From positions 13,943-77,942 of the forward strand of contig CAWCBX010000054.1 in assembly GCA_963793595.1 (NCBI GenBank): a stretch of DNA of 64,000 nt. The letters are read 5' to 3'. The first letter of the stretch is position 1, and each line of letters opens with the position of its first letter. Source of the stretch: an uncultured Gammaproteobacteria bacterium. Lineage in GTDB: Bacteria; Pseudomonadota; Gammaproteobacteria; GCA-001735895. The position numbers and the translations under genes are program-made. The notes under the pieces are model-generated. The model was not told the origin of the DNA and did no database searches. It was given only the letters and a program-made list of their open reading frames with translations. Positions 5,772-31,200 of the stretch are shown here, piece after piece.

Positions 5772-5775
5772 GCAC

Positions 5776-8662: not shown

Positions 8663-9441
8663 TAGCGCGCGAGCTCCAGGTCATAGTCCATGATTAACGG
8701 CGCATGATCGGAAAAACGCTGATCGCGAAATATGCGCGCCTTCTGCACCTTGTCTCTCAGACCCGGGGTGACGATCTGGTAATCGATACGCCAACCGACA
8801 TTCTTGTCCCAGGACTGGCCCCGGTTTGACCACCAGGTGTATTGCTCCTCGCGTTGATCGACGACGCGAAATGCATCGACAAAGCCGACACGATCGAACA
8901 GATCGCTCAACCAGGCGCGTTCCTCGGGCAGAAAGCCGGAGTTTTTCTGGTTCGAGCGCCAGTTTTTCAAATCAATATTCTGATGCGCAATATTCCAGTC
9001 ACCACAAATAATGAATTCGCGGCGTTTGCGCCGCAGCGCCTGCAAATGCAACAGGAAACTATCCATAAAGCGCCACTTGGATTCCTGGCGATGGTCGCCC
9101 GAAGATCCGGACGGCGCATACAGTGAAATAACCGACAGGTTCTTGTAGCGATACTCCAGATAACGCCCTTCATTATCAAACTCTGATTCGCCGTAACCAT
9201 GGATCACCTGCAACGGCTGCTCCCTGCTGTAAATCGCGGTACCCGAATACCCCTTTTTCAACGCATCGAAATAGCTGCAGAAATAATTCTTCGGGTGAAA
9301 CAGCGGCTGGTCCAGTTGGTCAACCTGGGCCTTGGTTTCCTGTACACAGATGAAATCCGCACGTTGGCGAGGTAGCCAGTCGAAAAAACCCTTGCGCGCC
9401 GCAGCACGGATACCGTTGGTGTTAATTGAGATCACGCGCAT
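8662..9441 (-). CDS. xthA: exodeoxyribonuclease III
   Basis: 259 aa with [32 protein letters not shown] and [10 protein letters not shown]. Confidence 0.9.
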
Positions 9442-9516
9442 CTTAAACTGCTACCAATATTGAAATCAGGCGATATGATACATGACTTGAGATGTCCGAC
9501 TAATAACGAATCATTT

Positions 9517-10155
9517 ATGCATAGCTACCAATCCCGCTTCGTCGACTATTGCCTGCAGCGCGGCGCGCTCAAGTTTGGCGAATTCACGCTTAAATCCGGT
9601 CGCGTCAGCCCTTACTTTTTCAACGCAGGAATTTTCAACCGCGGTGCTGACCTCGCCGCACTGGCCGAATTCTATGCCAATGCGATTCAGCAGTCCCAAA
9701 TCGAATTCGACCTGCTGTTCGGCCCCGCTTACAAGGGCATCCCACTGGCCGCGATTACGGCAAGTGCATTGTTTCAGCAATATCAGCGTGACATTCCGTA
9801 TGCTTTTAACCGCAAGGAAGCCAAAGACCATGGCGAAGGTGGCAATACTGTTGGCGCCGAAATCACGGGTCGCGTCATGATTATCGACGACGTGATTACC
9901 GCCGGTACCGCAATTCGTGAAGCGATCGAGTTGATCGATGCGCTTGGCGCCGAAACCTGTGCAGTCACCATTGCGCTTGATCGCCAGGAAAAGGGGCTGG
10001 GAGAACGCTCTGCAATTCAGGAACTCGAACAGCAGGGCTTGCGCGTTATCTCGATAATCAAACTCGACCATATTCTCGAATACCTGCAATCCAGCGGCCA
10101 AAACCAGCATCGTAATGCGATAGAAACCTATCGTGCCGAATACGGTATCGACTAA
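9517..10155 (+). CDS. pyrE: orotate phosphoribosyltransferase
   Basis: I prefer the ATG at 9517 ([36 protein letters not shown]), giving 212 aa. PRPP motif [16 protein letters not shown]. Confidence 0.9.
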
Positions 10156-10324
10156 AGGGCATCTCTAAAAATAGTAATTTATTCGTGAGTGCAAGCGGTC
10201 CGGCGTCCCGGAAGCACGGCGCTGAAGCCGCAATCGCGGATAAAGTGCATTTTTAAAAATGCCCTGAACTCAGCCCGATAAAGACAGTCTATGTAGACTA
10301 TCGCAATATAAAAACAGGTGCGCC

Positions 10325-11086
10325 ATGCTTCGGATCCTGGTACTTGCCAGTTTGTTTTCATTGCCTGCTTTCGCCGCTGCTCCCATCGTGGTCAGCAGCG
10401 CTGACAAGCAGACTGCAGTGGTCGAACTCTATACCTCGGAAGGGTGCAGCAGCTGCCCGTCGGCTGATCGCTGGTTATCGCGTCTGATCGAGGCGCCTAA
10501 AGATGAACTCGACCTACTCGCGCTCGCTTTCCATGTTGATTACTGGGACTATCTCGGCTGGAAGGATCGTTTTTCAAGTGCGGCTTACACCCATCGTCAA
10601 CGCGAGTTGGCCGCCAACAATCTGCAACAGACAATTTATACGCCTGAGTTCTTCGTCAACGGCATGGAAACGCGCGGTGCCAGTAATATTCTGGATAAAA
10701 TCAGGCAGGCGAACCAGCAACCGTCACCGCTTGATCTTAAGCTCACCGTATCCCGCGACAAAACCAGCCTGGTGCTGGAGCTGCAGTCCCCTGGAGACCG
10801 CGACATTACCGGGCAAATCCATCACCGCTACCTGGTCTATGAAAATAATTTGTCGACTGATGTCAAAAGAGGCGAAAATTCGGGAGAAATACTCAAGCAT
10901 GAACAGGTTGTGCGTTATATGAGTAAAGCAAAAAGCCTGCGTGAACAAAACCAGTATCGCATCGCTATCGATCCCGACTGGCAAGCCGAAAATATCGGCG
11001 TCGCCGTGCTGGTTACGTCACCCGGTGACAGGCACTATCTGCAGGCATTGCATACTCCGGTAGCAAGTTTACTGACTGAGCAATAA
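10325..11086 (+). CDS. DUF1223 family secreted thioredoxin-fold protein
   Basis: Signal peptide MLRILVLASLFSLPAFAAAP, then ELYTSEGCSSCPSAD and FHVDYWDYLGWKDRF. Confidence 0.75.
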   Translation: MLRILVLASLFSLPAFAAAPIVVSSADKQTAVVELYTSEGCSSCPSADRWLSRLIEAPKDELDLLALAFHVDYWDYLGWKDRFSSAAYTHRQRELAANNLQQTIYTPEFFVNGMETRGASNILDKIRQANQQPSPLDLKLTVSRDKTSLVLELQSPGDRDITGQIHHRYLVYENNLSTDVKRGENSGEILKHEQVVRYMSKAKSLREQNQYRIAIDPDWQAENIGVAVLVTSPGDRHYLQALHTPVASLLTEQ

Positions 11087-11175
11087 TGCGTAAATTTATG
11101 AAAAATCGCGATAAGTAAACTATTATGCCTGTTAAGATTTATATCAACCTGTACGGTTAAGGACGAAAAGATACT

Positions 11176-12746
<1,571 letters not shown>

Positions 12747-13952
12747 TTAACGGTGGGCGCAAGTATAGCGCTCGATAATTAAATCGATAAGCTGTTTCGC
12801 GATTTCAGTTTTACTCGCATGCTCGATACTTTGTCGCCCTCCAGGCCAAAAAACCTCGAGCTGGTTAAAATCGATTTCAAATCCACTGCTGCTATCGCCA
12901 ACCTGATTGGCCGCAATCATATCGAGGTTTTTCTGCTTCAGTTTGCCCAGCGCATATTTTTCCAGTTGCCGGGTCTCCGCAGCAAAACCAACACAGAACG
13001 GGCGCTGCTCGAGCGCACTAACCGCAGCCAGGATATCGACGTTGGGGACCAGTTGCAGCGACATCGAGTCTGCCGATTTTTTGATTTTATGGTCTGCAGT
13101 CTGATCCACCCGGTAATCTGCAACCGCGGCGCAGGCAATAAAAATATCGCTCAGTATTGCCTGCCGCATCACCGCGTCATACATTTGCTGCGCCGACTCA
13201 ACCGCTACCAGTTGCACACCTTGTGGTGCTGCTAAAGCTACCGGGCCACTGACCAGGGTTACGCTTGCGCCCTCTTTCAGCGCGGCCTCGGCGAGGGCAT
13301 AGCCCATCTTGCCCGAACTGCGATTGCTAATATAACGCACCGGGTCAATGGCTTCCCGCGTCGGACCCGCGGTCAGCAATAATGCGACCCCATCGAGTTT
13401 TCCGGGCATAAAATGCTGCGCAACCTTATTTACCAGTTGCCCGGGTTCAAGCATGCGTCCCGGACCGACATCTCCACAGGCCTGCTCACCATCGGCCGGC
13501 CCCCACACCAGCACATTGCGGGCGCCAAGTTGATTTATATTGTCCCGGGTCGCCGCATTAGCGAACATTTGCTGATTCATCGCGGGTGCTACCGCAACCG
13601 ACTGCTTGCTCGCGAGGCACAATGTCAGCAGCAGGTTATCGGCATAGCCAGCATTCAATTTACCGAGAAAATTTGCCGACGCCGGCGCTACCAGCAACAG
13701 GTCACACCAGCGCGCGAGTTCAATGTGATCCATCGCCGAGTCGGCTTCGGCATCGAACAGGTCGCTGTAAACCCGATGACCACTAAGCGCCTGGTAGGTC
13801 AGGGGCTGCACAAATTCCTGCGCCGACGGCGTCATCACCACGCGCACCTCGGCACCCGCCTTGATCAACAGGCGCAGCAGCTCGGCGGCCTTGTAGGCGG
13901 CGATACCGCCGGTAACCCCGAGTAAAATTTTCTTGTTGATGAGTGTTTGCAT
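12747..13952 (-). CDS. coaBC: bifunctional phosphopantothenoylcysteine decarboxylase / phosphopantothenate-cysteine ligase
   Basis: I prefer the ATG at 13952 (MQTLINKKILLGVTGGIAAYKAAELLRLL). Also PAMNQQMF and SSGKMGYALAEAA. Confidence 0.9.
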   Translation of the reverse strand: MQTLINKKILLGVTGGIAAYKAAELLRLLIKAGAEVRVVMTPSAQEFVQPLTYQALSGHRVYSDLFDAEADSAMDHIELARWCDLLLVAPASANFLGKLNAGYADNLLLTLCLASKQSVAVAPAMNQQMFANAATRDNINQLGARNVLVWGPADGEQACGDVGPGRMLEPGQLVNKVAQHFMPGKLDGVALLLTAGPTREAIDPVRYISNRSSGKMGYALAEAALKEGASVTLVSGPVALAAPQGVQLVAVESAQQMYDAVMRQAILSDIFIACAAVADYRVDQTADHKIKKSADSMSLQLVPNVDILAAVSALEQRPFCVGFAAETRQLEKYALGKLKQKNLDMIAANQVGDSSSGFEIDFNQLEVFWPGGRQSIEHASKTEIAKQLIDLIIERYTCAHR

Positions 13953-13996
13953 TTGTTCTATTTTAGCGCTTGAGAACAACAGGTAAAGGAATACCC

Positions 13997-14668
13997 ATGG
14001 CAATCTCAGATTGGCCCAGTGCCGAAAGACCCCGTGAAAAACTCATTAATCGAGGCGCAAAGGCGCTCTCGGATGCCGAACTATTGTCGATTTTTCTGCG
14101 TACCGGTGTAGCCGGTAGCTCCGCAGTCGACCTCGCGCGGCAACTTTTGCTCGACTATGGCTCGTTACGCAAAATCTTCGCTGCCGACATAAAAAGTTTC
14201 TGCGCAGGTAAAGGCCTGGGGCTGGCCAAATTCGTGCAGTTACAGGCGGCACTCGAAATCGCGGGGCGACATTTTGCGGAAAACCTCGAACACGAGGATT
14301 GCCTGACCAATCCGACAAAAACCACGGATTATCTGCGTGCACGTCTGCGCGACTATGACTACGAAGTATTCGCCTGCCTGATGCTAGATAATCGTAATCG
14401 CGTGATTGCGTTCCGGGAATTATTTCGCGGCACCATTGACGGTGCCAGCGTCTATCCACGTGAAGTGGTAAAACAGGCACTGGCCGACAATGCCGCTGCA
14501 GTCATTCTGGCACATAACCACCCGTCGGGCGTCTGCGAAGCAAGCCAGGCCGACATCCGCATCACTGAGCGTCTACGAAAAGCACTCGGACTGGTTGATA
14601 TTCGCGTACTCGATCACGTCATCGTGGGCGATGGAATTACCTGCCTTTCTGAACAAGGTCTGGTCTGA
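13997..14668 (+). CDS. radC: RadC-family JAB/MPN domain protein
   Basis: I prefer the ATG at 13997 ([16 protein letters not shown]...[14 protein letters not shown]). JAMM motif [21 protein letters not shown]. Confidence 0.9.
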
Positions 14669-16859
14669 CGGAGGTTTCGAACCAGCTAGCGACCTGCTCG
14701 ACCTCTAGCGGGCGGCTAATGTAGTAACCCTGCACGTGGTCGCAATTCATTTCAGCGAGCAAATCGAAAACCGCAAGCGTTTCGACGCCTTCGGCAACGA
14801 CTTTCAAATCAAGGGTATGCGCGAGCTCGATGGTCGCCCTGACGATCAACTGATCATCCGGATTGCTGACGATATCGCGTACGAACGACTGGTCGATCTT
14901 GAGCTTTTCGACAGGTAACTCTTTCAGGTATGTCAGCGAGGCCTGGCCGGTTCCGAAATCATCTATCGACAATGACAGACCCATCACGCCGAGATGCGAG
15001 AGAACTTCGATCACTTCGCCGGGTTCCTGCATAATCTGCCCCTCGGTGATCTCGATAACGATCTGCGCGGGTTTGATCTGGTACTGCTTTAAACAAGTTT
15101 CGATACGTTCAGGCAGACGACGGTCATGCAAATCAATCATCGACAAATTGATGCCGACCGCTATGTCACCCAGGTCAGATTGGCTAATAAATTGACAGGC
15201 TGATTCGAAAATCCAGTTGGTTAGCGGTTTAATCAACTGATTTTGTTCGGCCAGACGAATGGTTTGATCGATCGAGACATCGTGCTTGTCCGGGTCCTTC
15301 CAGCGCAACAGGGCTTCGAGGTAAACGGTGGCATAGCTCTGCAGATCGACCACCGGCTGAAAAACAAGCTTGAGTTCATCGTGGTCGATCGCGCGACGCA
15401 GCTCCTGAATCATCGTAAATCCGGACGTGTCAGCTGTCTCATCGGCATCGCGGAAGAACTGGATGGGCCAATCGCTGCTCTTCGCCCCAACCAGGGCGCT
15501 ACTGGCATTCTGGTACAGGCCAGCGGCGTCAACCGCATGATCAGGATAAAGCGCAATACCGAAAAAGGCGCTTAACACAAACTCACGCCCGTGGATCTGG
15601 TAGTGCCGCGTAATCGCCAGGTAAATTTTTTCGACCAGTGTATTGAGTTGATCCCGCTGCTGCACTTCCAGCAATATCGCAAACAGGTTTCTTTCAAAAC
15701 GGGCGACTTGATCACTCTCGCGTAAAGATTCACGCAGGCCTTCGCCAACCTGCCTGAGCAGTGCATCTACAATGTACTGACCGCGTTGCTGCACGAAATC
15801 ATCCAGACCGTGAATATCTATCATGATCAGCGCATATTTCCGTCCATTGCGCTTGCCTTCGAGTATCGCCTGCGACAGCCGGTCTTCAAAAATGACCCGA
15901 TTGTTAAGACCGGTCACCGGATCACGCTTGGCCATTTTTTGCAGCACCTTGAAGTACTCGCCCATTACTTTCAACCCAGGCCTTATTTCACTGGCAGTAC
16001 CGGTATCGCTGTCCTGTTGGCTTTTCGCGGCACGCCGCATTTTCTCCGCCAGTTCCTGCAACGGCCTGATCAGATTCAGGTGTAATAACGCCAGTACCAG
16101 GACTGCAGCACATAGCAGTATCAACAACACGACCGAAGCCTGCCGTTCGAAAAGTTCCCAGAAAGATATCGGGTTCAGTTCCAGATGCAGTTCACCAGCC
16201 ACGGCATCTGTTTCCCCGACCGGGATAATTATCTGCTTGCCACGATTACCGCTAGCACTGAATTCCTGGTACTGAATGCCTTGCTGGGTATCGGCGGCAT
16301 GCTGCAGCCTGCGCCCGGACAGGAATGAAAACTCATTGAGAAAATCGAAATAGTCCATGCTCACTAGCAGCACTGCCGCGTTGTCGTCGGTCGTAACGGG
16401 CCCCGCAATTTCGAGTAAGGCTTTATCGTCGATACGGCAACTCGATATCCGTGGCACCAGGTAATCATCGAAATCCTGCCGAAGCATCTGCCCAGGCTGC
16501 AGGCAACCGGGTTTTTTCGACCTGGAAACTGGCTGACCCTGTTGATCGAATTGCACCAGGTTGACCGCCCAGATGCTTGGATTACGCTGGTAGTAATCCC
16601 AGAGAAAAGACTGGAAATTGTGCTTGCCGGCAGGCGATTTCGCCAGCGTGTTGAGCAGGTAATACTGCGACTGCAGCCATAGTTGCTGCTTTTGTTGAAG
16701 CTGCAGGATCTGAGCATGCAGATTCTGCTGCACGGTTACCGCAGTTTGCTGGTTCTGCCGATCGACCAGAACCATTAGCGACAGGCTCCACAGAATGAAC
16801 ATCAGCAGACTTAGACCCGTTACCAGGATCACGCTGAAATTCGAGATATTGAGTTTCAT
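14637..16859 (-). CDS. membrane sensor protein with a degenerate GGDEF domain and an intact EAL phosphodiesterase domain
   Basis: 740 aa with an N-terminal TM, a periplasmic region and a second TM. The GGDEF position reads [12 protein letters not shown] (GGDEF replaced by ERNLF). EAL motifs are intact: [47 protein letters not shown]. Confidence 0.85.
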
Positions 16860-16873
16860 AAGCCAGGCTCGCG

Positions 16874-17788
16874 TTACTCGATGTTCTGCACCTGTTCGCG
16901 CATTTGTTCGATCAATACCTTGAGATCAACCGCGAGCTGGGTGGTCAGGCTATCCTGAGATTTTGATCCCAGCGTGTTGGCTTCACGGTTGAGTTCCTGC
17001 ATCAGGAAGTCGAGCCTGCGGCCAACCGCTTCATTGCGATCGAGTACGTTTAGAACCTCCGCCACATGAGTATCGAGCCGGTCGAGCTCCTCTTCAACAT
17101 CCAGTTTTTGCGCCAGCATAACCAGTTCCTGCTCGAGACGATTTTCGTTCGCTGTTTCACGCCACTGCTTCAGTTTTTCATCGAGACTGGATTCCCATTT
17201 TTCACGCAGGGCCGCGACAATTTCCGGACGGTGCTTGCGCACTTCACCAACAATATCGCTGACCTGTGCACAACGACTGCGGATCAATTCCTCGAGCGCC
17301 TTACCCTCGGCTTCGCGACCCTGCTGTAACTGTTTGAGTGCTGCCTTGAGGCAGACTATCGCGAGCTCATCGAGCGCAGACAAATCACGCTCGACGTCGC
17401 TGATCACACCGGGCCAGGCAAGGATATCGGAGACCGACAACTTGCTGCCTTCATGCACTATATCAAGTACCTGCTGCTCTACCTTGCGCAGGCTTATCAC
17501 GATTTCCGGATTCAGGGCTATGTCGGCCTGCGGTTGCTGATCAAGCTTATAGCGCAGACCCAGGTCGACTTTGCCACGTGTCAGGTATTTCGCCACCAGC
17601 TTGCGTACCTCGGGCTCGAGTTGCCTGAAGTCTTCCGGCAGTTTGATGCCAGTCTCCAGGTAACGATGATTAACCGAGCGTAGCTCCCAGATTACTGATC
17701 CTGCATCATTGCTTTCCTGTACCCGGGCAAAGCCGGTCATGCTTCGTATCACAGCGTCATTCTCGAAAGTAGTTTCAAGCGGCATCAT
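16874..17788 (-). CDS. yicC: YicC-family stress-induced protein
   Basis: IRSMTGFARV near the N-terminus. The real start may be the GTG 12 codons downstream of the track start. C-terminus LMQELNREANTLGSKS. Confidence 0.85.
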   Translation of the reverse strand: MMPLETTFENDAVIRSMTGFARVQESNDAGSVIWELRSVNHRYLETGIKLPEDFRQLEPEVRKLVAKYLTRGKVDLGLRYKLDQQPQADIALNPEIVISLRKVEQQVLDIVHEGSKLSVSDILAWPGVISDVERDLSALDELAIVCLKAALKQLQQGREAEGKALEELIRSRCAQVSDIVGEVRKHRPEIVAALREKWESSLDEKLKQWRETANENRLEQELVMLAQKLDVEEELDRLDTHVAEVLNVLDRNEAVGRRLDFLMQELNREANTLGSKSQDSLTTQLAVDLKVLIEQMREQVQNIE

Positions 17789-17901
17789 AGCCTATTTTGC
17801 GCATTCGCTTAAGCAGCGTCTGGCATCATGCATCAATTCTTGGGGACGGCCTTCTTTCTGACGAGTATACTTGCCGCTCATTTTTATGGAGACAACCAAT
17901 A

Positions 17902-18609
17902 ATGCGACCCAGTGCTCGTGCAGTGGATGAGTTAAGACCAGTCAAGATTACGCGTAACTACATCAAGCACGCCGACGGCTCGGTGTTGATCGAGTTCGGC
18001 GATACCCGCGTCATTTGCACCGCTTCGATTGAAAATTCGGTGCCCGGCTTTTTACGCGGCAAGGGTAGCGGCTGGGTGACCGCGGAGTACGGCATGCTGC
18101 CGCGTTCCACCGGCAAACGCATGCGCCGCGAAGCCAGCAGTGGACGCCAGGGAGGACGCACCATGGAAATCCAGCGCCTGATCGGTAGAGCGCTGCGTGC
18201 CAGTATCAATACTGGAAAACTGGGCGAGCGCACTATTACCGTGGATTGCGATGTCATCCAGGCCGATGGCGGCACCCGCACCGCATCAATTTCAGGCGCC
18301 TGGGTGGCGCTGTCCGATGCGGTCCAGGGATTGATCGATGCCGGTGATCTCGAGCAGAACCCGATCGAATGCCAGGTAGCAGCTGTATCAGTGGGCATTT
18401 ACCGGGGCGAACCGGTTCTCGATCTCGACTATGCCGAAGATTCCACCGCGGACACCGACATGAATGTAGTGATGAACAATCGGGGCGGCTTTATCGAAGT
18501 CCAGGGAACTGCCGAAGCCGAGGCTTTTACAGACCATGAGTTGAATAGCATGCTGGCACTGGCGCGCACTGGCATAACACGTATTTTCGACTTCCAGACA
18601 AACGCATGA
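17902..18609 (+). CDS. rph: ribonuclease PH
   Basis: I prefer the ATG at 17902 ([42 protein letters not shown]). Also [11 protein letters not shown]. Confidence 0.95.
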
Positions 18610-19205
18610 AACAACTGGTGCTGGCATCGGGAAACCCTGGCAAATTGCGCGAGTTATCGGCAATCCTCGGCGAACTCGGCTACCAGTTGCATGCCCAGTC
18701 TGAATTCGATGTGGACGAGGTCGCCGAGACCGGCACTACTTTCGTCGAAAACGCGATCATCAAGGCCCGTCACGCCGCCGCGCTTACCGGTTTACCGGCG
18801 CTGGCCGACGATTCCGGTATCGAGGTCGACGCGCTCGACGGGGCACCGGGGGTATACAGCGCTCGTTTTTCCGGCGCCGATGCTGATGATGCTGCCAACA
18901 ATGCCTTACTGGTGGAAAAATTACGCGATGTCCCACCGGCACAGCGCACTGCACGGTATCGCGCGGTAATTGTATTGATGCGCCATGCCGCAGACCCATC
19001 ACCATTGATCTGTGAGGGCAGCTGGGAAGGCATGATCCAGCTGGAACCGGCCGGAGATGGAGGTTTCGGCTACGATCCTTACTTCTTTCTGCCCGACCGG
19101 GGATGCACCAGCGCGCAACTGAGTGCCAGTGAAAAGAACCGGCTCAGCCATCGTGGAGCGGCGCTGGCGGAGTTGAAACGTAAACTGAACGAGCAGAATG
19201 TTTAG
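18606..19205 (+). CDS. rdgB: dITP/XTP pyrophosphatase (RdgB/HAM1)
   Basis: [46 protein letters not shown] overlap with the rph stop. Confidence 0.9.
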
Positions 19206-20403
19206 CAGCAACCCTCCGCTCGGTCTTTACATCCATCTGCCCTGGTGCGAACAAAAATGTCCCTACTGCGATTTTAATTCCCACCAGGCCGACTCAATTC
19301 CTGAACAGGCCTATATCGAGGCATTGCTCGAAGATCTCGAACAGGATTTGCCACTGATATGGGGTCGCGGCATCGATTCTATATTCATTGGTGGCGGTAC
19401 ACCTTCGCTATTCTCGGCTGCCGCCATCGAGCAGCTGTTTTCGGGACTGCGTTCATTGCTGAATATCGCTCCTGCAATCGAAATAACGATGGAATCAAAT
19501 CCGGGCAGCGCCGATGCAGAAAATTACCAGGGCTACCGTGAAGCCGGCGTCAATCGACTGTCGATCGGGGTGCAGAGTTTCAACGATCAACACCTGAAAA
19601 CGCTCGGTCGCGTGCACAACGGCGAGCAAGCCGCGCGTGCATTTGCAATCGCGCGCAGGGCCGGGTTCGATAATATCAACCTCGATCTGATGTTCGGCCT
19701 GCCGGCGCAAAGCCTGGCCGACGCGAGTAACGATCTGGAGCAGGCGATAGCGCTCGGGCCGGAACACATATCACTCTATCAATTGACGCTCGAACCCAAC
19801 ACGCTGTTTCATCACCACCCGCCAGCGAGTATGCCGGACGATGATCTATGCTGGGAGCAACAGAACGACTGCCAGGTGCTGCTGGCCAGGCATGGTTATG
19901 ATCAATACGAAGTTTCAGCCTATGGCCTGGATAAACGTGAATGCAAACACAATTTAAACTACTGGCACTTCGGTGATTACCTCGGCATCGGCGCGGGGGC
20001 ACATGGCAAGATTACCCTTGGCGGCGAAAACCGGGTGCTACGCCGGGTACGCCAGCGTCAACCGCGCGCCTACCTCGAACGGCCTGGCAGTGACCGCATC
20101 TCAAGTGAAACTGTACTGGATGAAGATGACCTGGTGTTTGAATTCATGCTCAATGCGTTGCGGCTCAAACATGGATTCGATACCAGCCTGTTCCGCGACA
20201 ATACCGGTTTATCATTAAATTCGCTGTTACCCGGGCTGGAACAGGCACGTGATAAGGGTTTGATCGACTTCGATGGCGTAAAAATAGTCCCCACAGAGCT
20301 TGGGTTTTGTCATTTAAACGACTTGCAGGCGCTTTTTTTACAACTGCACGATGCAAAAAGAAGGCCATTTTTTGAATCTTCCGGGAAAATTACTCACAAC
20401 TGA
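19198..20403 (+). CDS. hemW: radical SAM heme chaperone HemW (HemN-like, oxygen-independent coproporphyrinogen oxidase family)
   Basis: [19 protein letters not shown] (CxxxCxxC cluster), [19 protein letters not shown]. Confidence 0.85.
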
Positions 20404-20563
20404 ATTATCGGCGCCAAAAATGTCAAGCGCTTTCTGATTTTTTTTACGGTCAAAAACCGGGTTTCCTAAGTCATTGATTATTATATCTTTTTAAGTTGGT
20501 CAAAAAGTGACTAATCTAACAGAAACCCAGCGTTTTACAGGCTTTGCGTAATTCCTACTTAAG

Positions 20564-20598
20564 TTATACACAAAGTTATCCACAGTTTTTGTGGATAA
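20564..20598. promoter_or_regulatory. cluster of three DnaA-box 9-mers (two direct, one inverted)
   Basis: TTATACACA (20564-20572), TTATCCACA (20576-20584) and TGTGGATAA (20590-20598). The last two form the perfect palindrome TTATCCACA-GTTTT-TGTGGATAA. All match the TTWTNCACA consensus. Confidence 0.6.
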
Positions 20599-20773
20599 AA
20601 TTGGCGCTCACAATAGGCTCAAGGCATTATGAGATTTTGGTTATAAAATACTTTAAGTTTGATTCCTAAATGAGCTCTCGAAATGACTAAAATCAACTAA
20701 AAAACACTTGCACTTTGCCCTCTAAAAGGTGAAAATTCGCGCCCTTTAGCGCTCGACCCATAGAAGTGGCACC

Positions 20774-21016
20774 ATGAAACAAGACATTCATCCCGATTAT
20801 AGAGACGTCGTATTCCAGGATATCTCGTCAGATTTTTCGATCCTGACGAAGTCCACCGTACCCACCAGGGAAACCATCACCTGGGAAGACGGCAACGAAT
20901 ATCCATTGCTAAAGCTTGAGATTTCGAGCCAGTCGCACCCCTTCTATACCGGTAAGCAACACATCCTGCAAACCGCAAAACAGGTCGACAAGTTCCGTCA
21001 GCGCTACGGTAAGTAA
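20774..21016 (+). CDS. rpmE2: 50S ribosomal protein L31 type B (non-zinc paralog)
   Basis: 80 aa with [16 protein letters not shown]...SHPFYTGKQ and no CxxC zinc ribbon, which indicates type B. Confidence 0.9.
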
Positions 21017-21033
21017 TTTTTAGCAGTATCCAG

Positions 21034-21060
21034 AAAGGGTGCCAGGGCACCCTTTTTTTT
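21034..21060 (+). terminator. rho-independent terminator of rpmE2
   Basis: Stem AAAGGGTGC / GCACCCTTT with loop CAGG, followed by a T-run to 21060, about 18 nt after the stop codon. Confidence 0.8.
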
Positions 21061-21098
21061 GCCTTGAATAAAGCATTGCATCACCCAATAATCAACCC

Positions 21099-22544
21099 AT
21101 GAAGTTCGCCAGCACCCTGTTTCTCATACTGAGTCTCACACTCAGCGCCTGTGCGACCAACCCGGTGACCGGTAAAAGTGATTTCACGCTCGTCTCGGAA
21201 AACGAGGAAATCAGGCAGGGGCGCAGCTTCCACCAACAAATTATTACCGCCTATGGCGTCTATGATGACCCCGAATTACAACAATATGTGAATGGTATCG
21301 GTCAGGAGCTGGCTAGCAGGAGCCATCGCGCGCACCTCAATTTTACCTTCACGGTGCTGGACTCTCCCGATATCAACGCATTTGCCTTACCGGGTGGTTA
21401 TGTCTACATCACGCGCGGTATCATGGCCTACCTCGACTCAAGGGCCGAACTTGCCGGTGTGCTGGGACATGAAATCGGACATGTTACCGCGCGCCACTCG
21501 GTACGCCAGCAATCCGGCCAGATGGCGTCGACCCTGCTTAGCGTGTTGATTACCGCCACCACCGGCCAGTCCGGACTGGGGGATCTCAGTAACCAGCTTG
21601 GGACCGGGATGATACGCGGTTACGGCCGCGAGCATGAACTTGAAGCCGATCGCCTCGGTGCCGAATATCTGCACCTGAGCGGTTACGACCCCGAAATCAT
21701 GCTTGAAGTCATTGGCGTCCTCAAAGACCAGGAGGTTTACGAACAGGCGCTGGCAAAAAAAGAAAATCGAGACCCCAATATTTATCACGGCGTATATTCT
21801 ACCCACCCGCGTAACGATGACCGTCTCAAGACCGTGGTACGCGCCGCCAGGAATCTTTCCGTACAGACCTATCGCGATAGTGACCAGTCAGGTTATTTCG
21901 GCAAGATCGACGGTATGATGTGGGGGCCCAGCATCAAGCAGGGAATACTCGCCAATAATCTGTTCACTCATCCCGAACTCGCCTTTTCCCTGCAGCTACC
22001 CGAAACCTGGGAAGCCAACAACTACCCCGAATTTCTGCAGGCCAAAAATCCGCAAGGCGGCGCAATAGTTCAGATCGGAGTGACCAGCCTGGAAAAAGAC
22101 GAGTCACTGGAAGGCCTGCTAAAGCGAATGAGTAACAATAAAGAGCTCGAGGTCAGCAAGAATAAAAACGGGGTTAGCGCCAACATCATGGCTAAACCAC
22201 GCGATGGTGACGAGCAACCGGCCCGGATTGGCGCGATCGCACTCGATAATTCTCTGGCCCTAACCCTGCTGGGTACCTCGGCAGCAGATAAGTTCGCCGA
22301 AACCGAAAAGGCTTTGCTTGGCATCAATCAGAGTTTCCGTCGGCTCAGCCAGGCGCAAATCGACGCCATCGAGGTGCCTCGACTGCAGATCGTCAGCAGC
22401 AAATTCCAGAGCTTTGAAACCCTGGCAGAGCAAAGTGCGATCGAATACGAGGCGGTAAATATCTTGCGTTTGCTCAATCGAGCCTACCCCAACGGCGACA
22501 TAAGCAAAATTAAAAACCTCAAAACAGTAACCTATGATGACTAG
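21099..22544 (+). CDS. M48-family zinc metalloprotease lipoprotein
   Basis: Lipobox LSLTLSAC, zinc motif LGHEIGHVTARH and a downstream EADRLG. Confidence 0.85.
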   Translation: MKFASTLFLILSLTLSACATNPVTGKSDFTLVSENEEIRQGRSFHQQIITAYGVYDDPELQQYVNGIGQELASRSHRAHLNFTFTVLDSPDINAFALPGGYVYITRGIMAYLDSRAELAGVLGHEIGHVTARHSVRQQSGQMASTLLSVLITATTGQSGLGDLSNQLGTGMIRGYGREHELEADRLGAEYLHLSGYDPEIMLEVIGVLKDQEVYEQALAKKENRDPNIYHGVYSTHPRNDDRLKTVVRAARNLSVQTYRDSDQSGYFGKIDGMMWGPSIKQGILANNLFTHPELAFSLQLPETWEANNYPEFLQAKNPQGGAIVQIGVTSLEKDESLEGLLKRMSNNKELEVSKNKNGVSANIMAKPRDGDEQPARIGAIALDNSLALTLLGTSAADKFAETEKALLGINQSFRRLSQAQIDAIEVPRLQIVSSKFQSFETLAEQSAIEYEAVNILRLLNRAYPNGDISKIKNLKTVTYDD

Positions 22545-23370
22545 CCTGCGCCTCGGTATATTGCTCGGAGCTGTCCTGTTTAGCTGTCTCGTGACCGCGT
22601 CTGAATCAGCAGATTCTGCCTGCCGAAAAATCTCCGGCAAACTCGCAAGCGTCGATTACCAGGAATGTTCAGATCTCGGCATGACGCCGAGCGGCCATAC
22701 CTCGGTTGACGGCTTCCCGTTGCTAATCAAGGAATACCCACCGCTCAACAATCGCGAGCCACAGGGACGTATTCTTCTCGTCGGTGGTACGCACGGAGAC
22801 GAACTCTCATCGATCAGCATCGTATTCAAATGGATGCATACTCTCGAGAAACACCATTCAGGGTTGTTTCACTGGCGCATTAATCCGTTGATGAATCCTG
22901 ACGGCGCACTGCGCCCCGAACAACGCCGTACTAATGCAAATGGGGTCGACCTGAACCGTAACTTTGCGACGCCCGACAGCCATAATGGGGCGGCGCTCGA
23001 TTACTGGAGAGAGAAAACCTATGAAAACCTGCGTCGCTACCCGGGACCCTACCCGCTCAGCGAACCCGAAACTAACTGGTTGTCCGAGGAAATCGACAAC
23101 TTCAAACCTGATGTCGTAATCGCAGTGCATGCGCCTTATTCACTGGTAGACTACGATGCACCTGACCGCAACAACGCACCCAGACGCATCGGCTATTTGC
23201 ATAAAAACCTGATGGGTACCTACCCGGGATCGCTTGGCAACTATGCCGGGATTTATCTCGGTGTCCCGGTAGTGACCCTGGAGTTACCACACGCCGGGAT
23301 CATGCCGACCAATCAGCAAATCCGCCACCTGTGGACAGACCTGGTTCGCTGGCTGGTGCGCAATGTGTAA
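22534..23370 (+). CDS. M14-family zinc carboxypeptidase / murein peptide amidase-like protein
   Basis: Signal peptide, then LLVGGTHGDELSS, NPLMNPDG and RTNANGVDLNRNF. An MpaA-like function is inference only. Confidence 0.75.
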   Translation: MMTSLRLGILLGAVLFSCLVTASESADSACRKISGKLASVDYQECSDLGMTPSGHTSVDGFPLLIKEYPPLNNREPQGRILLVGGTHGDELSSISIVFKWMHTLEKHHSGLFHWRINPLMNPDGALRPEQRRTNANGVDLNRNFATPDSHNGAALDYWREKTYENLRRYPGPYPLSEPETNWLSEEIDNFKPDVVIAVHAPYSLVDYDAPDRNNAPRRIGYLHKNLMGTYPGSLGNYAGIYLGVPVVTLELPHAGIMPTNQQIRHLWTDLVRWLVRNV

Positions 23371-23457
23371 TTTACCGTTTTGAACTATCGCATCATTATG
23401 CCCCCTGCCGCCACCTGTCCCCTTGACGCGATTTGTGCGATATTTGGCGTAATCTAA

Positions 23458-24470
<1,013 letters not shown>

Positions 24471-24471
<1 letters not shown>

Positions 24472-25307
24472 TGGCCCCGGCCGACCAGGTCGATCGCTAT
24501 GCCGTGGTTGGTAATCCGGTTGCACACAGCCTGTCACCCCGAATTCACGCCAGCTTCGCCGCGCAAACCGCGCAAAAAATCAGTTATGACGCCATCGAGA
24601 TTCCAGTCGACTCGTTTGCAAACGGAATTCGTGATCTACAGCAAAAGGGGTTTAGCGGTGTAAATGTCACGGTTCCTTTCAAGCGCGAAGCCTGGGAGCT
24701 TTGCGATCACTTGAGCACGCGGGCACAGGATGCCGGCGCCGTTAATACGCTGAGTTTCCTGGCTGATGGCAGTGTCGCTGGCGACAATACCGATGGTGTG
24801 GGCCTGACACGTGACCTGGTGGACAATTTAGGCGTCACCATCGAGCGGCAGAAAATTCTGCTACTCGGTGCCGGTGGCGCGGTGCGTGGAGTACTCGGCC
24901 CAATCCTGGCGCTGTCACCGGATCGACTCACGATTGCCAACCGGACCCCGCAAAAAGCAGTCGCCCTGGCCCAGGATTTCAAAAAACTTGGTGAAATCCA
25001 TGCTCTAGCATATGAAACCCTCGGGTCGGCAAGCTACGACCTGATTATCAACGGTACTGCCGCAGGCCTGAGCAACCAGGTCCCACCGATTGCAGACAGC
25101 GTGTTGAGCGAAAATTCGGTTTGTTATGACATGATGTACAACATCAGCAGGGCAACCGCGTTCGTCGACTGGGCGCATGCTCGCGGGGTCAAACAGGCCT
25201 TCGATGGTCGGGGCATGCTGGTGGAGCAGGCCGCTGCGGCATTTCACGCCTGGCGCGGCATTTATCCCCGAACCGCGGAAGTTATAAAATCGTTAGGACA
25301 ATCATAA
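24471..25307 (+). CDS. aroE: shikimate dehydrogenase
   Basis: YAVVGNPVAHSLSPRIH, GVNVTVPFKREA, NTDGVGL, LLGAGGAVRG. TAATG overlap with hemB. Confidence 0.9.
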
Positions 25308-25412
25308 ATCAGCTGGTTATCGATTTTACGGTCGATGATTTCGCCACCGGTCGGTAACTTTTACACAGTTCTCCGATCAGGGCAGGCCGACCCGGAATAC
25401 TAATCCGCCAGG

Positions 25413-26876
25413 CTAAACCCCGGATCGCTCGAACAACACCATTTCTTTTTCATCGTTTGCACGAACTCCCAGGTCCTCCATGATCGCGTAAGTTGCGGGC
25501 AAAACCAGCAACAACAACAGGGTCGACGAAATCATGCCAAACACCACGCTCGCTACCAGCGGTATCAATACCTGGGCCTGCAAACTGGTTTCCGCAAGCA
25601 ATGGCAGCATGCCGGCTATGGTCGTAATCGAGGTCAGAAAAATAGCGCGAAAGCGATCGCGTACCGCCTGCCCGGCAGCATCGTGTAACACCATGCCCTC
25701 CAGGCAGCGCCGTTTGACAAATTCCACCAGCAGGATCGAATCGTTGACGACAACTCCGGCCAGCGATACAAACCCGATCATACTCGGCATGGTGATATCC
25801 AGCCCCATAAATTTATGGCCCCAGACCACGCCGATCAGCGCCAGTGGAATATTCATCAGCACGACCAGCGGCTCGCGATAGTTCCTGAACTGGAAACTGA
25901 GCAGGAAATAGACCCCACAGATACCGAGCATGAATCCCGTCAATACTGAAGTATTGGTTTCCTGGCTATTTTTAACCTCGCCTTCCAGGCTGACATACAT
26001 CCCGGGATAGCGTTGCTGCAAACCTTGAAGAAATCGTTCCCGAGTATCACCGATGATTTCATTGGTGTTTGCGATATCGGCATCGATATCGCCTGAAATG
26101 GTAACGGTGCGCTGATGATCGATACGAGTGATGCGCGAGAATTCCCGTTTCTCTTCGATACTGGCGATCGCGTTTAACGGTATATCGACTCCCTGGTTGT
26201 TAAACAGGCTGAGCTGTTCGAAATCGCGCAGCGCATTTTCACGATCGGTATCAAGCCTGACGTTGATTTCATAGGCTTCCCGACCACGGTAAATATCATC
26301 TACCTTTACGCCCTGGTAGGCGGCCCGCAACTGTTGCGCCAGTTGCCGCGCGTTGAGTCCGGAAACCAGCGAGCCTGGCCGCAGGCTGACCGTGAACTGG
26401 GGCTTGCCCTGGCGCAAATCGTCCATCACGTTGGAAACCCCGGGATAACCATTCAGCCAGGTCTGTAATTCCCAGGAGGCGCTGGACAATAGTTGCAAAT
26501 CGTCGTGCTGCAGGCGTATCGAAATCGCCTGCCCCGCCGGACCCAACCTGGGTTCCTTGAACTGCACTGATACCACATCGGCGATCGGCCCGGTGGTTTC
26601 CAGCCATAGCCGTCGCAGCTCGTTGAGCGAGGTATTGCGCTTCTCCGAATCGAGCAAGTCCAGACTGATGGTCGCGAGATGCGCGCCTTCTTCCCCGGCA
26701 TCGGCATTGTTACTGTAGAAAACCTGGATATGCCTGATCAATTCGCCTGCTGTTTCGGGCGGTAGCTGCTCGCTCGCCTGTCGCAAGCTGGCAATCAACT
26801 TCGCCACCACGGCCTCGGTCCCATCGCCGCGCGCCGCGCGGCGGCGGCGGCGGCGGCCGCTCATCGCATCAATCAA
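25413..26876 (-). CDS. RND (AcrB/HAE-type) efflux permease, C-terminal half only; 5'-truncated at the junction
   Basis: Second periplasmic loop plus the C-terminal TM bundle (FMLGICGVYFLLSFQFRNYREPLVVLMNIPLALIG...VVVNDSILLVEF...IFLTSITTIAGMLPL). Full-length RND pumps are about 1,030 aa and only ~470 native-looking residues are present. The apparent N-terminus MIDAMSGRRRRRRAAR is encoded by the GGC/CGG repeat and is not a real start. Confidence 0.85.
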   Translation of the reverse strand: MIDAMSGRRRRRRAARGDGTEAVVAKLIASLRQASEQLPPETAGELIRHIQVFYSNNADAGEEGAHLATISLDLLDSEKRNTSLNELRRLWLETTGPIADVVSVQFKEPRLGPAGQAISIRLQHDDLQLLSSASWELQTWLNGYPGVSNVMDDLRQGKPQFTVSLRPGSLVSGLNARQLAQQLRAAYQGVKVDDIYRGREAYEINVRLDTDRENALRDFEQLSLFNNQGVDIPLNAIASIEEKREFSRITRIDHQRTVTISGDIDADIANTNEIIGDTRERFLQGLQQRYPGMYVSLEGEVKNSQETNTSVLTGFMLGICGVYFLLSFQFRNYREPLVVLMNIPLALIGVVWGHKFMGLDITMPSMIGFVSLAGVVVNDSILLVEFVKRRCLEGMVLHDAAGQAVRDRFRAIFLTSITTIAGMLPLLAETSLQAQVLIPLVASVVFGMISSTLLLLLVLPATYAIMEDLGVRANDEKEMVLFERSGV

Positions 26877-27146
26877 GCAAGGGACTAGTTGGATCGTCGA
26901 TCAAGGCAGTCGATCGAGTCATCATCGGGCATGGTCCAGATGCCATGCCCCATGCCCAGAGACAGACCCCCGCTTGATACGTACTTCTAGTACTCTAGTA
27001 GAACGAGGCTCATACTCTCTAGAGTAGGCAAACATCAAAGAAACGACAACAATCTCACCGACGAGCCCTCTAGATTGCGGCCAACTCGACTCTAGCTCTT
27101 TGAAGACAAAGCTACTCTAGACTAGTAAGTCAAGTACCCACCTCCA

Positions 27147-28147
27147 ATGGAGCGGGCTGCTCTCCGGTTAAGACGCGGGCGGAAGCGTGACGAATCATCA
27201 TCATCTGCTGATCGGGCGTCGAGTGATGGTGATGACACCACCACCGGCAGCAGCAGCACGATGGATCTCCGAGAGATGGTCGACCTATTCGAGCACGGTG
27301 TACCCGTCAAGGATCGAAAGTGGCATGCTCGTACCTACCCCAAGTGCTTTGTTGGGACGGAAGCTGTATCCTTCATGGTAAAGGCTGGGATGGCAACATC
27401 GCGGGAAGCTGCAGTCAAACTTGGTCTTAGACTTTGCAATGAGTACAACCTGTTCGAGCACGTCTGCCGAGAGCACGAATTCAAGGACGGGTATCTTTTC
27501 TATCGCTTCGTTGGGAAACGCAAGCGCTTTGTACCGATGATTGACGAATGTGCGGCTACGCTAGTCCTGAACGAGGCATTGATGGGTATGGACGACGACG
27601 ATGACGATGACCGGTCAAGTACATCAACAACAAGCACGTCAGGTGATGAAATGTATGGTCTAAGAGAAGTCTCAAAGGCCTTGGAGAGCGGTTTGGAAGT
27701 AAAAGACCGCAAGTGGCATTTGAGAACTTATGCGGACTGCTTCATTGGGACCGATGCCGTTGATTTTCTAATCATCAACGGTTACGCACGGACTAGAGCA
27801 GATGCAGTCAAGTTAGGACGGAAAGTGGCCTCCTCTCTCAATCTATTCCATCATGTCACGGGAGACCACCTGCTCGAGGATGATCTCCTTTACTACCGAT
27901 TTAGTAGCGAAAAGGACAGGATCAAGTGGAAGGCATCACAAAAAGAAATGTCTCTCGAACAAAAGGCCAAAGCATTTGAGAGCGGGGTTACAGTAGAAAC
28001 AAATCGATATCACTTGCAGTCGTACCCCAATACTTTTGTAGGGTGCAAAGCTGTAGACTTTATGGTCAAGAGCGGCCTAGCGGATTCCCGAATTGCTGCC
28101 GTTGAACTTGGACGGGATTTCGTAAAGCACGCGAATTTGTTCCATCA
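27147..28147 (+). CDS. multi-DEP-domain protein, exon 1
   Basis: DEP repeats 1-3, e.g. VKDRKWHARTYPKCFVGTEAVSFMV...LFEHVCREHEFKDGYLFYRF. The exon ends at CA|GTGAGT. Removing 28148-28259 restores LFHHVTGDHEFRDDWLFYRF, which matches the preceding repeat LFHHVTGDHLLEDDLLYYRF. Confidence 0.85.
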
Positions 28148-28259
28148 GTGAGTAAATGCAAGCTATTGTTTCCGTTGAGAGTTTCTTTTTAGTATGGCTC
28201 ATTCACAATACATCTTGTTTTTAACATCACTTTTTGAATTCTATCCGTGCCGAGCGCAG

Positions 28260-31200
28260 CGTTACCGGAGACCACGAATTCCGCGACGATTGGTTGTTTT
28301 ATAGATTTGCAGACGAGAATGACCGTGTATGTATATCTCCAGATATAATGTCATTGCGACTGAGCGGCTCCTCTTCTGATGCTGCCGGTATATCTCTAGA
28401 GACAATTGGTGAAATTATTCGCAACGGAATAATGGTAAAAGATATTCAGCGCGGAAAGAAAGTTTACAGGAATTGCTTTGTTGCGGCCGATGCTGTCTCC
28501 TTTATGGTAGATTCATCTCTCGCTGAAACAAGGAGAGAAGCAGTGGTGCTTGGTAGGACATTGGAAAATACGCTCAACTTGTTCGAGTACGTGAGCACCA
28601 CAAAAGGATCTGGACATGGCAATAAGAGACCATTCTCTGACGACCGACTTGTGTTTCGATTCAGCGAGAAGAACGTCTCCGCAACAAAATTTTCATCGTT
28701 TAGAGAGAGTCAAAGTGAGCAGTTGTCGTCTCATTCGTCTGCCTTGTCTGAGGATGATACGTTGCAGCTTGCGGATATTGCCGAAACTTTCCGTGAAAAT
28801 ATCATTGTCAAGGATAGAAGGTGGAATTTCAAGACATACAGACAATGTTTTGTCGGAAAGCATGCGGTTGATTTCCTTGTAATGTCAAAGCTTGCCACAT
28901 CAAGAGAGGATGCAGTGAGAATAGGCCGTGATTTGATGCATTCCTTTGACTTATTTCGTCATGTTGGTAACAGGCATCAAGAATTTCAAGACCAATATCT
29001 GTACTACCGATTCAACGGATACGGCCCCATCCGACGTAAGAGATCCCAAAGCAGTGTGTTGCTGTGGAACCAAGCGGAATTGAAAACAATCGCCAAAGCA
29101 TTCGAGCAAGGAGTCAAAGTCAAGGACAACCGTTCTAATCTGCGCTTGTATAGGGGGACCTTTACTGGAAAGGACGCTGTGACATGTTTGATAGAATCAG
29201 GCATTGCATCGACGAGAGATGATGCGCTTGACATCGGGCGATCTCTGGCGACAGAGTTTAATTTGTTTCACAATGTGTCATCTGTGTGCTCCTTCACAGC
29301 GATTGAGCAAGGTTCTGAATGCAGACTACACGACAACGAACAGCGCATATATCGATTCACGAAAGTCAAAGACCGATGGTACTGGGTTGATGATTTCAAA
29401 GCCGACGATGCGCTTGAATCCCCTGTATTGGATCTTGGCGTTTCATCGAATGATGACAAATGGGCCGAGAGAGTCAGAGCATTCGAGAGAAACAAGCTTC
29501 TTAGTGTCTACTCACCTTCACGAGCATCCCTCATCGGCTCCGGTCACCACTCATCGCGAAGCATAAGATGGGCGTCGGAGTTCTATAGAAGTGATCCCAG
29601 ATACCAAATCTTCGATTTTTTCGCCGATGTAGCTCAGCTCGCAGCCATGGATGTGGAACGATTCCACATAAATATTGAGTCGATACGCCCACTGCTGCGA
29701 TATTTGTACCGCGGTTCAGTCTTCACGGTATGGCGACCGACATCTCGTATCGCCATTCGTCGGATGATGATGGGAGAAGCTGTCGGAAAGGGCTTAGACA
29801 TTAAGGGAAAATCTGCTCGACGAGGTAAATTATCAGGGTTTGTGCCGTTCCTCCAAATTAGTGAGAATGCTCACAAGAAAAAGATTCGCCCGCTTCCAAA
29901 GAATGGCGCAGTACGACTCTTTTTTCCTGGCGGAGATGGAGTCATGGCGCGAGACTCAGTCTCGACTAAGTTGGAAAGTGTCGCCAAAGATATGCTTGAT
30001 ATTGTCAAAGAAGCACGACGAACGCTCAATGACGCTCGAGCGGATTCGAGTGCTCGCAAGGATGCAGTCGAGAGCATGATGCTTGATATGGTAGATCCTT
30101 CAATTGTTTACATTGACGATTACGCCCCTACCTCATACGGACTTGAAATTCCCGTCCGTTTGTTTTGGGAGGCATTTGTTATCCAACAAAATGTTGACAG
30201 ACATCCAGGATCACAATATGACGCTGGTAGACCGAGCCAAGCTGCGTTTCAGGATATGAATATTGGTTCGTTACAGGCTCCCCGTACGGATGGTAAGCCC
30301 ACCCCAGTACTGATACAGAATGATAGAGATCTCGATCCCTTTAATCCGTTTGAGCTTCTAATGGCATACGAGGAGAATGGTAGAGTCTTGCCTGTTTGCA
30401 GTGACTTCGACAGCTTTTTAGTTGGGACTCGAGGAGTAGCATACACCTCGCCTTTGCCACCAGAACAAATTGAAATACTCAAGAATTCCTTAAATTGCAT
30501 CGAAGCAATACTCGACAGTCCTCCTCGACCTGAGGGGTGGACTAGCCGTTGGATCGAAGTGCTGAAGAAACAGACCGAAGCGGGATACCACCCTGTGACA
30601 CCGCGGTTTGGATTTGGATGCCCCAAGAGCATTGGTATTGTGCAGAATGCCGCAGAGAGACTAGCTATGACTGGTGCGGTCCGTCATGGAAGTGAATGCT
30701 TCAACTACTACTTTCCTCAACAGCTTGACGAAGAATTTCTAGTCATTTTCGATGGTCCTCGAGACAACCGCCTCAAATGGAAGTATGTCGATGTCAACGG
30801 CCTTCAGCAGATCTTGAAAGACAAAATTGATGATGGATTCTGTTTTCCTCTTAATCCCAAATGGATTTTATGTGACCCAGGGTGGTACTGCATATATGAA
30901 AAGCTACTCGGCAGCAAGCGAAGGAATGTGCAAGAGTCGCTTAACGTGTGGTTCCCTCCCGAGTCAAGTGTACGGGAACAAATCGAGCAAATTCATTTGA
31001 ATCATCCAGATGGATTCCAACGGAGGAGGGATCTCGACGATGTGAAGGAAAGCCTGTTCCATAAGCACTCGACAAGAGGCGCCGTAGATTTGGCCATTCA
31101 CAATCTCATTCCAGACTCAAAGGGCGAAGGTGATCAATTTGACAATTCTAGCTACACTGATGAAGCAGATATGCAGAAAAGGGTAGGTAGTGTACTTTGA
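28260..31200 (+). CDS. multi-DEP-domain protein, exon 2 (DEP repeats 3 (C-terminal part)-6 plus a ~650 aa C-terminal region of unknown function)
   Basis: The acceptor ...GCGCAG|C at 28259/28260 keeps the frame (1001 + 2941 nt = 1313 codons plus stop). There are six DEP-like units in total. No family was recognised for the C-terminal half. Confidence 0.8.

Follow-up and report, generated by a model that had tools for sequence, protein, structure and literature searches.

Wolbachia segments in insect and nematode genomes come from heritable intracellular donors of the germline, are flanked by host DNA on both sides and have been validated as insertions by polymerase chain reaction (PCR), fluorescence in situ hybridization (FISH) or spanning reads. 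In diatoms, the documented genes that were acquired by horizontal gene transfer (HGT) are scattered genome-wide without clustering, have gained introns over time and differ in their GC content from native genes by no more than 2 points (Vancaester et al., bioRxiv 10.1101/2020.01.24.918219). The assembly of the diatom Synedra acus contains contamination from Sphingomonadales (bioRxiv 10.1101/2020.01.24.918219), and the case of the tardigrade Hypsibius dujardini demonstrated that adjacency of eukaryotic and bacterial sequences is often artefactual, whereby the matter was settled by read-level evidence (bioRxiv 10.1101/033464; PMC4824900). Here, we analyzed a stretch of 64,000 nucleotides from contig CAWCBX010000054.1 (assembly GCA_963793595.1, positions 13,943 to 77,942), referred to as the window, in which chromosomal DNA of a gammaproteobacterium abuts nuclear DNA of a pennate diatom within a gene for an RND (AcrB/HAE1-type) permease. 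The sequence comparisons strongly support an origin of the two sides from different organisms. We regard the join itself as an artefact, namely an inter-genome chimera, with a probability of roughly 0.85.

The switch from bacterial to diatom sequence is abrupt and takes place between 26.8 and 27.0 kb. The tetranucleotide profiles of the two sides correlate with r = 0.30 only and the correlation flips within about 1 kb, while separate BLAST searches returned gammaproteobacterial contigs for the left side and diatom homologues for the right side; both of these checks had been proposed by an earlier annotation of the same DNA made from the letters alone (the sequence-only reading), and both agree with its view that two genomes are present. 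For the bacterial side, an exact-sequence look-up with the 80-aa L31 protein of the window led to the identification of six contigs (L033–L038), which belong to five ENA assemblies with MEGAHIT-style “k141” names and one JGI metagenome. They align to the window from position 12224 or 14505 up to 26821 with 99.13–99.31% identity and zero gaps. Past the break, all six complete the RND gene to 1038 aa, and an MFP gene (454 aa) and a DAO/GCV_T gene come next, so that the native genome differs from the window beyond this point on the bacterial side. The breakpoint was called from the megablast end-points, which all lie at 26821, together with a base-level alignment of the window with the six contigs. 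It is located at 26821|26822, with 26821 as the last base common to the native genome. At the break the native gene reads GGTCC|GGTCGAACGGGGTGCCCTGCGGCATGATAAT and does not contain any (GGC)n. The native row of the alignment is ...GGCCTCGGTCC|GGTCGAACGGGGTGCCCTGCGGCATGATAATACGCGC... and the window row is ...GGCCTCGGTCC|CATCGCCGCGCGCCGCGCGGCGGCGG..., whereby the window letters around 26.8 kb are ...CACGGCCTCGGTCC CATCG CCGCGCGCCGCGCGGCGGCGGCGGCGGCGGCCGC TCATCGCATCAATCAAGC.... To the right of the cut, 3 nt separate it from a GC-only run (26825–26860) and 16 nt from the trinucleotide repeat within this run. The sequence-only reading had placed the junction at 26830–26900 inside a (GGC)n tract, which is right with regard to the region of the switch but not with regard to the tract, since the cut at 26821 lies outside of it. 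A weak bacterial homology that reaches into the tract (to ~26842) in blastn comparisons with distant metagenome-assembled genomes (MAGs) was dropped, because the conspecific identity ends at 26821.

A motif scan of the junction yielded no adapter, linker, vector, telomere, Hi-C ligation or N-run signal above background; the NotI, SpeI, and XbaI sites nearby simply follow from the GC tract and from the richness of the diatom sequence in CTAG. Aligned with the GC tract, the native continuation of the bacterial gene is alike in 13 of 24 columns. This bears on a fusion after assembly, which could have happened by scaffolding or gap-closing without Ns, by redundancy-merging of contig ends or by concatenation of records. 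Such a fusion would have met with a bacterial end in mid-gene and a diatom start at a GC-only tract, both of them typical contig ends, and a permissive end-overlap merger could have accepted the weak GC-rich resemblance. However, the resemblance is no better than expected by chance for two GC-rich strings, and there are neither Ns nor a linker at the join. We consider a fusion at this late stage very unlikely as a separate explanation; it is a sub-case of the artefact and indistinguishable from it by sequence alone.

What is left of the RND gene in the window corresponds to positions 673–1020 of the 1021 positions of the Pfam ACR_tran profile. The retained codons start at the beginning of the second periplasmic loop, whereas the window lacks the N-terminal ~570 codons together with the MFP gene upstream. 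The six-frame open reading frame (ORF) 25413–26876 on the minus strand contains good RND sequence up to ...VVAETGDGRAARRRRRRGS, read backwards toward the 5′ end, and then enters Arg codons that are supplied by a (GCG)6.7 repeat at 26838–26857. It had been claimed before that about the C-terminal 470 aa of a ~1,030-aa RND pump are kept and that the frame dissolves into poly-Arg; the former is borne out by the count of 469 codons here versus 1038 aa in the conspecific contigs, and the latter by the Arg codons of the repeat. No trace of the N-terminal half was found anywhere in the window by tblastn. Compared with a full-length permease of ~1030 aa that comprises the whole ACR_tran domain and has an MFP neighbor, the RND ORF of the window is short, has a partial domain and stands without this neighbor. 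A GTDB scan with the RND fragment returned 22 loci in MAGs of uncultured Gammaproteobacteria, which have the same local gene order and 74–81% nucleotide identity, and two closer loci from metagenomes share ~86% identity with the window. In all of these related loci, the RND gene runs at least 1.1 kb beyond the point that matches window positions 26819–26842.

A break in the middle of a bacterial gene is what would also result from the reverse event, i.e., the insertion of at least 37 kb of diatom DNA into the bacterial chromosome. Against this stands that the RND locus is intact in all conspecific contigs reaching it (six of six), and that at least 37 kb of intron- and retrotransposon-bearing DNA extend to the window end without any return to bacterial sequence. 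To our knowledge, there is no precedent for a transfer of diatom DNA into a bacterial chromosome, and we consider it exceedingly improbable.

The nature of the sequence directly right of the cut was deduced from the GC-only tract and its surroundings. The native RND gene does not contain the tract, CGCCGCGCGCCGCGCGGCGGCGGCGGCGGCGGCCGC, in the six conspecific and more than 20 related loci. GC-only runs of at least 14 nt do not occur in the 26.8-kb bacterial part, but there are four of them on the diatom side. One of these (CGGCGGCGGCGGGCGCGCGCGCGGCGCGG...; (CGG)4 and then GCGCG/CGGCG units) resembles the junction tract in style and is located in a divergent intergenic region among diatom genes, which shows that tracts of this kind occur natively on the diatom side. 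At the equivalent position, a GC-only run of comparable length is lacking in the syntenic relative L032. Eight CTAG tetranucleotides are found within the 285 nt that follow the junction tract on its right, compared to a frequency of 0.63 per kb on the bacterial side, which strongly avoids CTAG; the ratio of observed to expected CTAG amounts to 0.07–0.26 on the left side and 0.4–1.3 on the right side. The region ~27033–27146 is homologous to the 5′ untranslated region (5′UTR) of a relative’s transcript (L004), whereby the homology is credible only from ~27033 onward. A 17-nt match of positions 26861–26877 to the same 5′UTR was rejected, as its score was below that of a control alignment versus bacterial sequence. 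From ~27033 on, the right side is pennate-diatom nuclear DNA. Most simply, the GC tract and everything to its right represent diatom intergenic DNA, and the ~200 nt from 26822 to 27033 are most simply assigned to the diatom by composition only.

For the other end of the bacterial block, a look-up with the 199-aa protein encoded at 4523–5122 returned four more contigs (L039–L042), which match window positions 1–14514 with 99.5% identity and without a gap and reach 5.5 kb further left into glyQS. Taken together, positions 1–26821 are covered by ten independent contigs (six ENA assemblies, one JGI metagenome) with 99.1–99.5% identity and no gap. Judged by these alignments, the block is a stretch of chromosome from a single gammaproteobacterial species, without rearrangement. 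This species was recovered alone in many metagenome samples and therefore the donor is an environmental bacterium. The matches continue past both ends of the block, and the right side is collinear with a 582-kb diatom contig, as would be expected from the presence of two genomes. There is a single junction in the window, and the bacterial sequence reaches position 1. Host DNA on both flanks was not seen, given that the sequence is bacterial up to position 1 and the conspecific contigs stay bacterial for 5.5 kb beyond; a junction outside the window is possible.

The bacterial block was inspected for signs of residence in a nucleus. Compared with the conspecific contigs, the window has 134 private substitutions over 26.8 kb, of which 86 are synonymous, 37 non-synonymous, and 11 intergenic. 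The ratio of non-synonymous to synonymous changes (pN/pS) is 0.13, and there are zero indels and zero internal stops. All of the 14 private substitutions that fall into the truncated RND fragment are synonymous; the fragment evolved within a working gene up to the present. Versus more distant relatives, the corresponding dN/dS values are 0.03–0.19, the RND fragment included. The bacterial tetranucleotide profile persists until the break is reached (r of 0.87–0.95 to the left-side profile and 0.2–0.39 to the right-side profile) without a shift toward diatom composition. No sequence shared between the two sides was found in the window, and no diatom repeat, intron or transposon was seen inside the bacterial block. 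The gaps between its genes are small, whereby the largest one contains rpmE2. From the lack of shared sequence and the small gaps we conclude that no diatom transposon has landed in the block. By these measures, the block looks like the genome of a living bacterium and unlike DNA that has undergone a measurable period of neutral evolution in a nucleus.

These data have to be weighed against a real insertion, in which at least 27 kb of gammaproteobacterial chromosome would have been end-joined extremely recently into a nuclear chromosome of a diatom, at a site 325 bp before the start codon of a gene with DEP domains and beside the GC-only tract. The pristine block of a free-living, sediment-type gammaproteobacterium would then have been caught essentially at the time of transfer, before decay. 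It speaks for such an event that the junction is clean, with no adapter or Ns and no repeat common to both genomes that could explain a misassembly, and that the diatom sequence at the junction is an ordinary intergenic or promoter region, behind which lies a gene that is intact and spliced. Diatoms do carry bacterial genes acquired by HGT (bioRxiv 10.1101/2020.01.24.918219). However, with zero decay, i.e., no indels, a pN/pS of 0.13 and only synonymous changes in the RND fragment, the time of nuclear residence would be practically zero. There is also no second junction in the window and no compositional shift, and the block contains neither an intron nor an inserted transposon. The donor lives freely in the environment and is not an intracellular symbiont, and the content is a random piece of housekeeping chromosome. 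Moreover, no multi-gene bacterial block this large has been documented in diatoms, where the known HGT genes are unclustered (bioRxiv 10.1101/2020.01.24.918219). We therefore judge both the insertion as such and its capture at the very moment of transfer to be quite unlikely. If the join were real, it would constitute the first case in diatoms of a large bacterial insertion comprising multiple genes, captured at time zero and derived from a donor that is not a symbiont, and the earliest steps of gene transfer from a bacterium to an alga would become directly observable.

Since there is no decay, no composition shift, no second junction, and the donor is environmental, a chimera fits all tests made, and the preference for a chimera that had been voiced in the sequence-only reading is shared by us on these grounds. 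The bacterium may, as put forward there, be a diatom-associated one with the diatom as its host; its conspecific contigs are metagenome assemblies. DNA of a free-living gammaproteobacterium and of a pennate diatom from one sample would have been fused, either in vitro as a chimeric library molecule or read or as an amplification chimera, or in silico by an assembler or a contig-merging step that joined two dead ends. The bacterial block would then be a fragment of a normal chromosome, and the RND pump would be halved only on paper. The GC-only tract is most simply intergenic diatom DNA upstream of the DEP gene and as such a likely place for a diatom contig to end. We infer both the non-biological nature of the fusion and the step that was responsible for it.

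Some observations do not sit easily with an artefact. The usual cause of false joins is a repeat shared by both genomes. Such a repeat is absent at the join, as the native gene is without the GC tract and the join is 3 nt outside the tract. The earlier suggestion that a low-complexity repeat seeded the false join thus had to be given up. Without a shared repeat, the artefact would need a chimeric template or a tip-joining error. Nor is the junction marked by an adapter, linker, vector, N-run or telomere, and a blunt junction is also expected from non-homologous end joining in a living nucleus. Contigs of this diatom with or without the junction were not retrieved by exact-protein look-ups (DEP exon 1, 41416–43413, and 57723–58955), an absence that is uninformative either way; on the bacterial side, the look-up with aroE returned no match either. 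A metagenome scan with DEP exon 1 only yielded relatives at 35% identity and showed neither an empty site nor an independent junction.

For practical use, the contig is best split at 26821|26822 and the 26.8-kb block kept out of diatom gene sets and HGT counts. Left unsplit, it would present ~27 bacterial genes in apparent physical linkage with diatom genes, and these would pass for strong evidence of HGT. If the join is an artefact, a chimera is possible without a repeat common to both genomes, and chimera filters that are based on repeats would miss it. The features of the window are compiled in Table 1.

Table 1. Coordinates of the junction and of the features on its bacterial and diatom sides (window positions; a dot denotes no strand).
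Feature	Position	Strand	Basis or remark
Breakpoint	26820..26824	.	window CATCG versus native gene GGTCG
Truncated RND (AcrB/HAE1-type) permease gene, C-terminal 469 codons	25413..26821	-	Pfam ACR_tran
Unrearranged gammaproteobacterial chromosome piece: partial glyQ, 25–26 intact genes, 3′ half of RND gene	1..26821	.	
GC-only tract, 36 nt, including (GCG)6.7 at 26838–26857	26825..26860	.	not in bacterial gene; diatom-side type
CTAG-rich non-coding region upstream of diatom DEP gene	26861..27146	+	CTAG count, 5′UTR alignment to L004
Diatom gene, six DEP domains and conserved C-terminal region, one GT-AG intron	27147..31200	+	Pfam, L004 transcript
Second GC-only tract, 42 nt (42–47 nt; window 51251–51297)	51256..51297	.	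between GRAM/VASt (-) and TPI (+) genes
Diatom chromosomal segment: GRAM/VASt, TPI, DJ-1-like and other genes	48936..64000	.	blastn versus L032

The gene content of the left side was determined with NCBIfam and Pfam profiles. It comprises mpl, a gene for a Ser/Thr kinase with a cyclic-nucleotide (cNMP)-binding domain, ubiX, hemL, ampG, xth, pyrE, a DUF1223 gene, a DUF4124 gene, argB, coaBC, radC, a gene for a GGDEF-EAL protein, yicC, rph, rdgB, hemW, rpmE2 (L31), genes for an M48 and an M14 peptidase, hemB, and aroE, whereby the profile matches of the genes identified by NCBIfam are full-length or nearly so. The coding density is ~95%, and a terminator-like hairpin is present 3′ of rpmE2 (21032–21057). 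The block is core housekeeping chromosome and not a plasmid, an integrative and conjugative element (ICE) or another mobile element. Of what the sequence-only reading had listed for this side, the gammaproteobacterial core genes (pyrE..argB-coaBC-radC..yicC-rph-rdgB-hemW) and, in form of the terminator-like hairpin, the rho-independent terminator were found again, and its description of densely packed, intact bacterial genes also holds; we count 25–26 complete genes, plus the partial glyQ and the truncated RND gene. Neither an Rfam scan nor a tRNA scan across the entire window had a match.

Two loci of the bacterial block deserve a separate description. The gene at 2585–3895 on the plus strand, located between mpl and ubiX, encodes a bacterial Ser/Thr protein kinase that is fused to a C-terminal cyclic-nucleotide-binding (CRP-like) domain, and it is kept in the conspecific contigs. 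The second is a strain-variable spot after radC (window 14505–14520), where the identity of several conspecific contigs to the window stops at 14514 or 14505. Several of them have a gene for a phage-type integrase (Arm-DNA-bind, Phage_integrase) after radC (compare L039–L041 at ~20050–20600 and L033 and L035 upstream of GGDEF-EAL), whereas in the window and in L034 the GGDEF-EAL gene directly follows radC with no integrase in between. The spot looks like a genomic-island integration site of this bacterial species.

On the diatom side, the first gene consists of the ORFs 27147–28151 and 28234–31200, with three Pfam DEP domains in each exon. Homologues stem from diatoms, among them Seminavis robusta (41%) and a Cylindrotheca entry, and the best match is the 1307-aa product of the 4.1-kb JGI transcript contig L004 with ~91% nucleotide identity. 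The intron at 28148–28259 has a length of 112 nt, starts with GTGAGT, ends with CAG and is absent from L004, and its removal gives one open frame; this GT-AG intron is proven by the relative’s transcript. A second intron at 31155–31317, suggested by a gap versus L004, was dismissed for want of a GT donor; the gap represents an indel at the stop codon. The conserved C-terminal region of the DEP protein comprises ~600 aa, for which the homologues carry a precomputed Pfam match to PF03497 (Anthrax_toxA, anthrax toxin subunit family). A Pfam scan of the window protein at E ≤ 0.001 yielded DEP only and no PF03497 match. The homologue from Seminavis bears the name “Rac exchanger 2 protein.” Upstream of the gene, CTAG motifs such as CTCTAGAGTAG and CTACTCTAGACTAGT occur in 26880–27125, and there is a perfect 10-nt inverted repeat, TCTAGAGTAG / CTACTCTAGA, at 27018–27027 and 27112–27121. 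The CTAG-rich region with the inverted repeat may constitute a promoter or 5′UTR element.

Further to the right, positions 34772–39235 on the minus strand are occupied by an uninterrupted pol ORF of 1487 codons from a long terminal repeat (LTR) retroelement with RNase H and integrase zinc-binding domains (Pfam), and the intact frame suggests that the element is young and possibly active. The region from 48.9 to 64 kb is collinear with L032 (ENA ERZ25068762), a 582-kb contig from an independent assembly, with 70–88% nucleotide identity in the matching blocks. Within this region, the ORF for triosephosphate isomerase (TPI; 52453–53541, plus strand) extends ~100 codons upstream of the TIM domain (residues 103–347), which may be an organelle-targeting presequence as judged from the ORF, and the closest relatives of the TPI are environmental sequences with 90–92% amino acid identity. 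Among the repeats of the diatom side are a degenerate intergenic (GAGTC) pentanucleotide microsatellite of ~55 copies at 56000–56270, an intergenic 52-nt tandem repeat with 3.1 copies and 97% identity at 59124–59284, and (CT)21 at 62744–62787. What had been claimed for the right side without any database, namely GT-AG introns, an LTR-retrotransposon Pol and microsatellites, was recovered here, the introns in form of the one that is confirmed by L004.

In comparison with known systems, the RND locus is closest to HAE1-type operons of an MFP and an RND gene. Its 469 codons share 87–91% identity with the C-terminal half in related MAGs and hardly differ from the 1038-aa gene of the conspecific contigs, but the window is without the N-terminal half and the MFP partner and, as written, cannot encode a pump. 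With the documented cases of diatom HGT the window has in common that sequence of bacterial origin adjoins diatom genes. It differs from them by a block of 25–26 complete genes with a truncated gene at each end and a native bacterial composition. The insertions of Wolbachia resemble it in that a collinear multi-gene bacterial block with little or no decay bluntly abuts host DNA, whereas the donor here is free-living and there is one eukaryotic flank only. Contaminated or chimeric assemblies such as those of Hypsibius dujardini and Synedra acus differ from the window, as here both genomes are on one N-free contiguous sequence with no repeat common to both. Apart from that, the window shares with them pristine, dense, and intron-free bacterial housekeeping genes beside genuine host genes, no adaptation to the host genome, a sharp change in composition, and an environmental donor from the same kind of sample.

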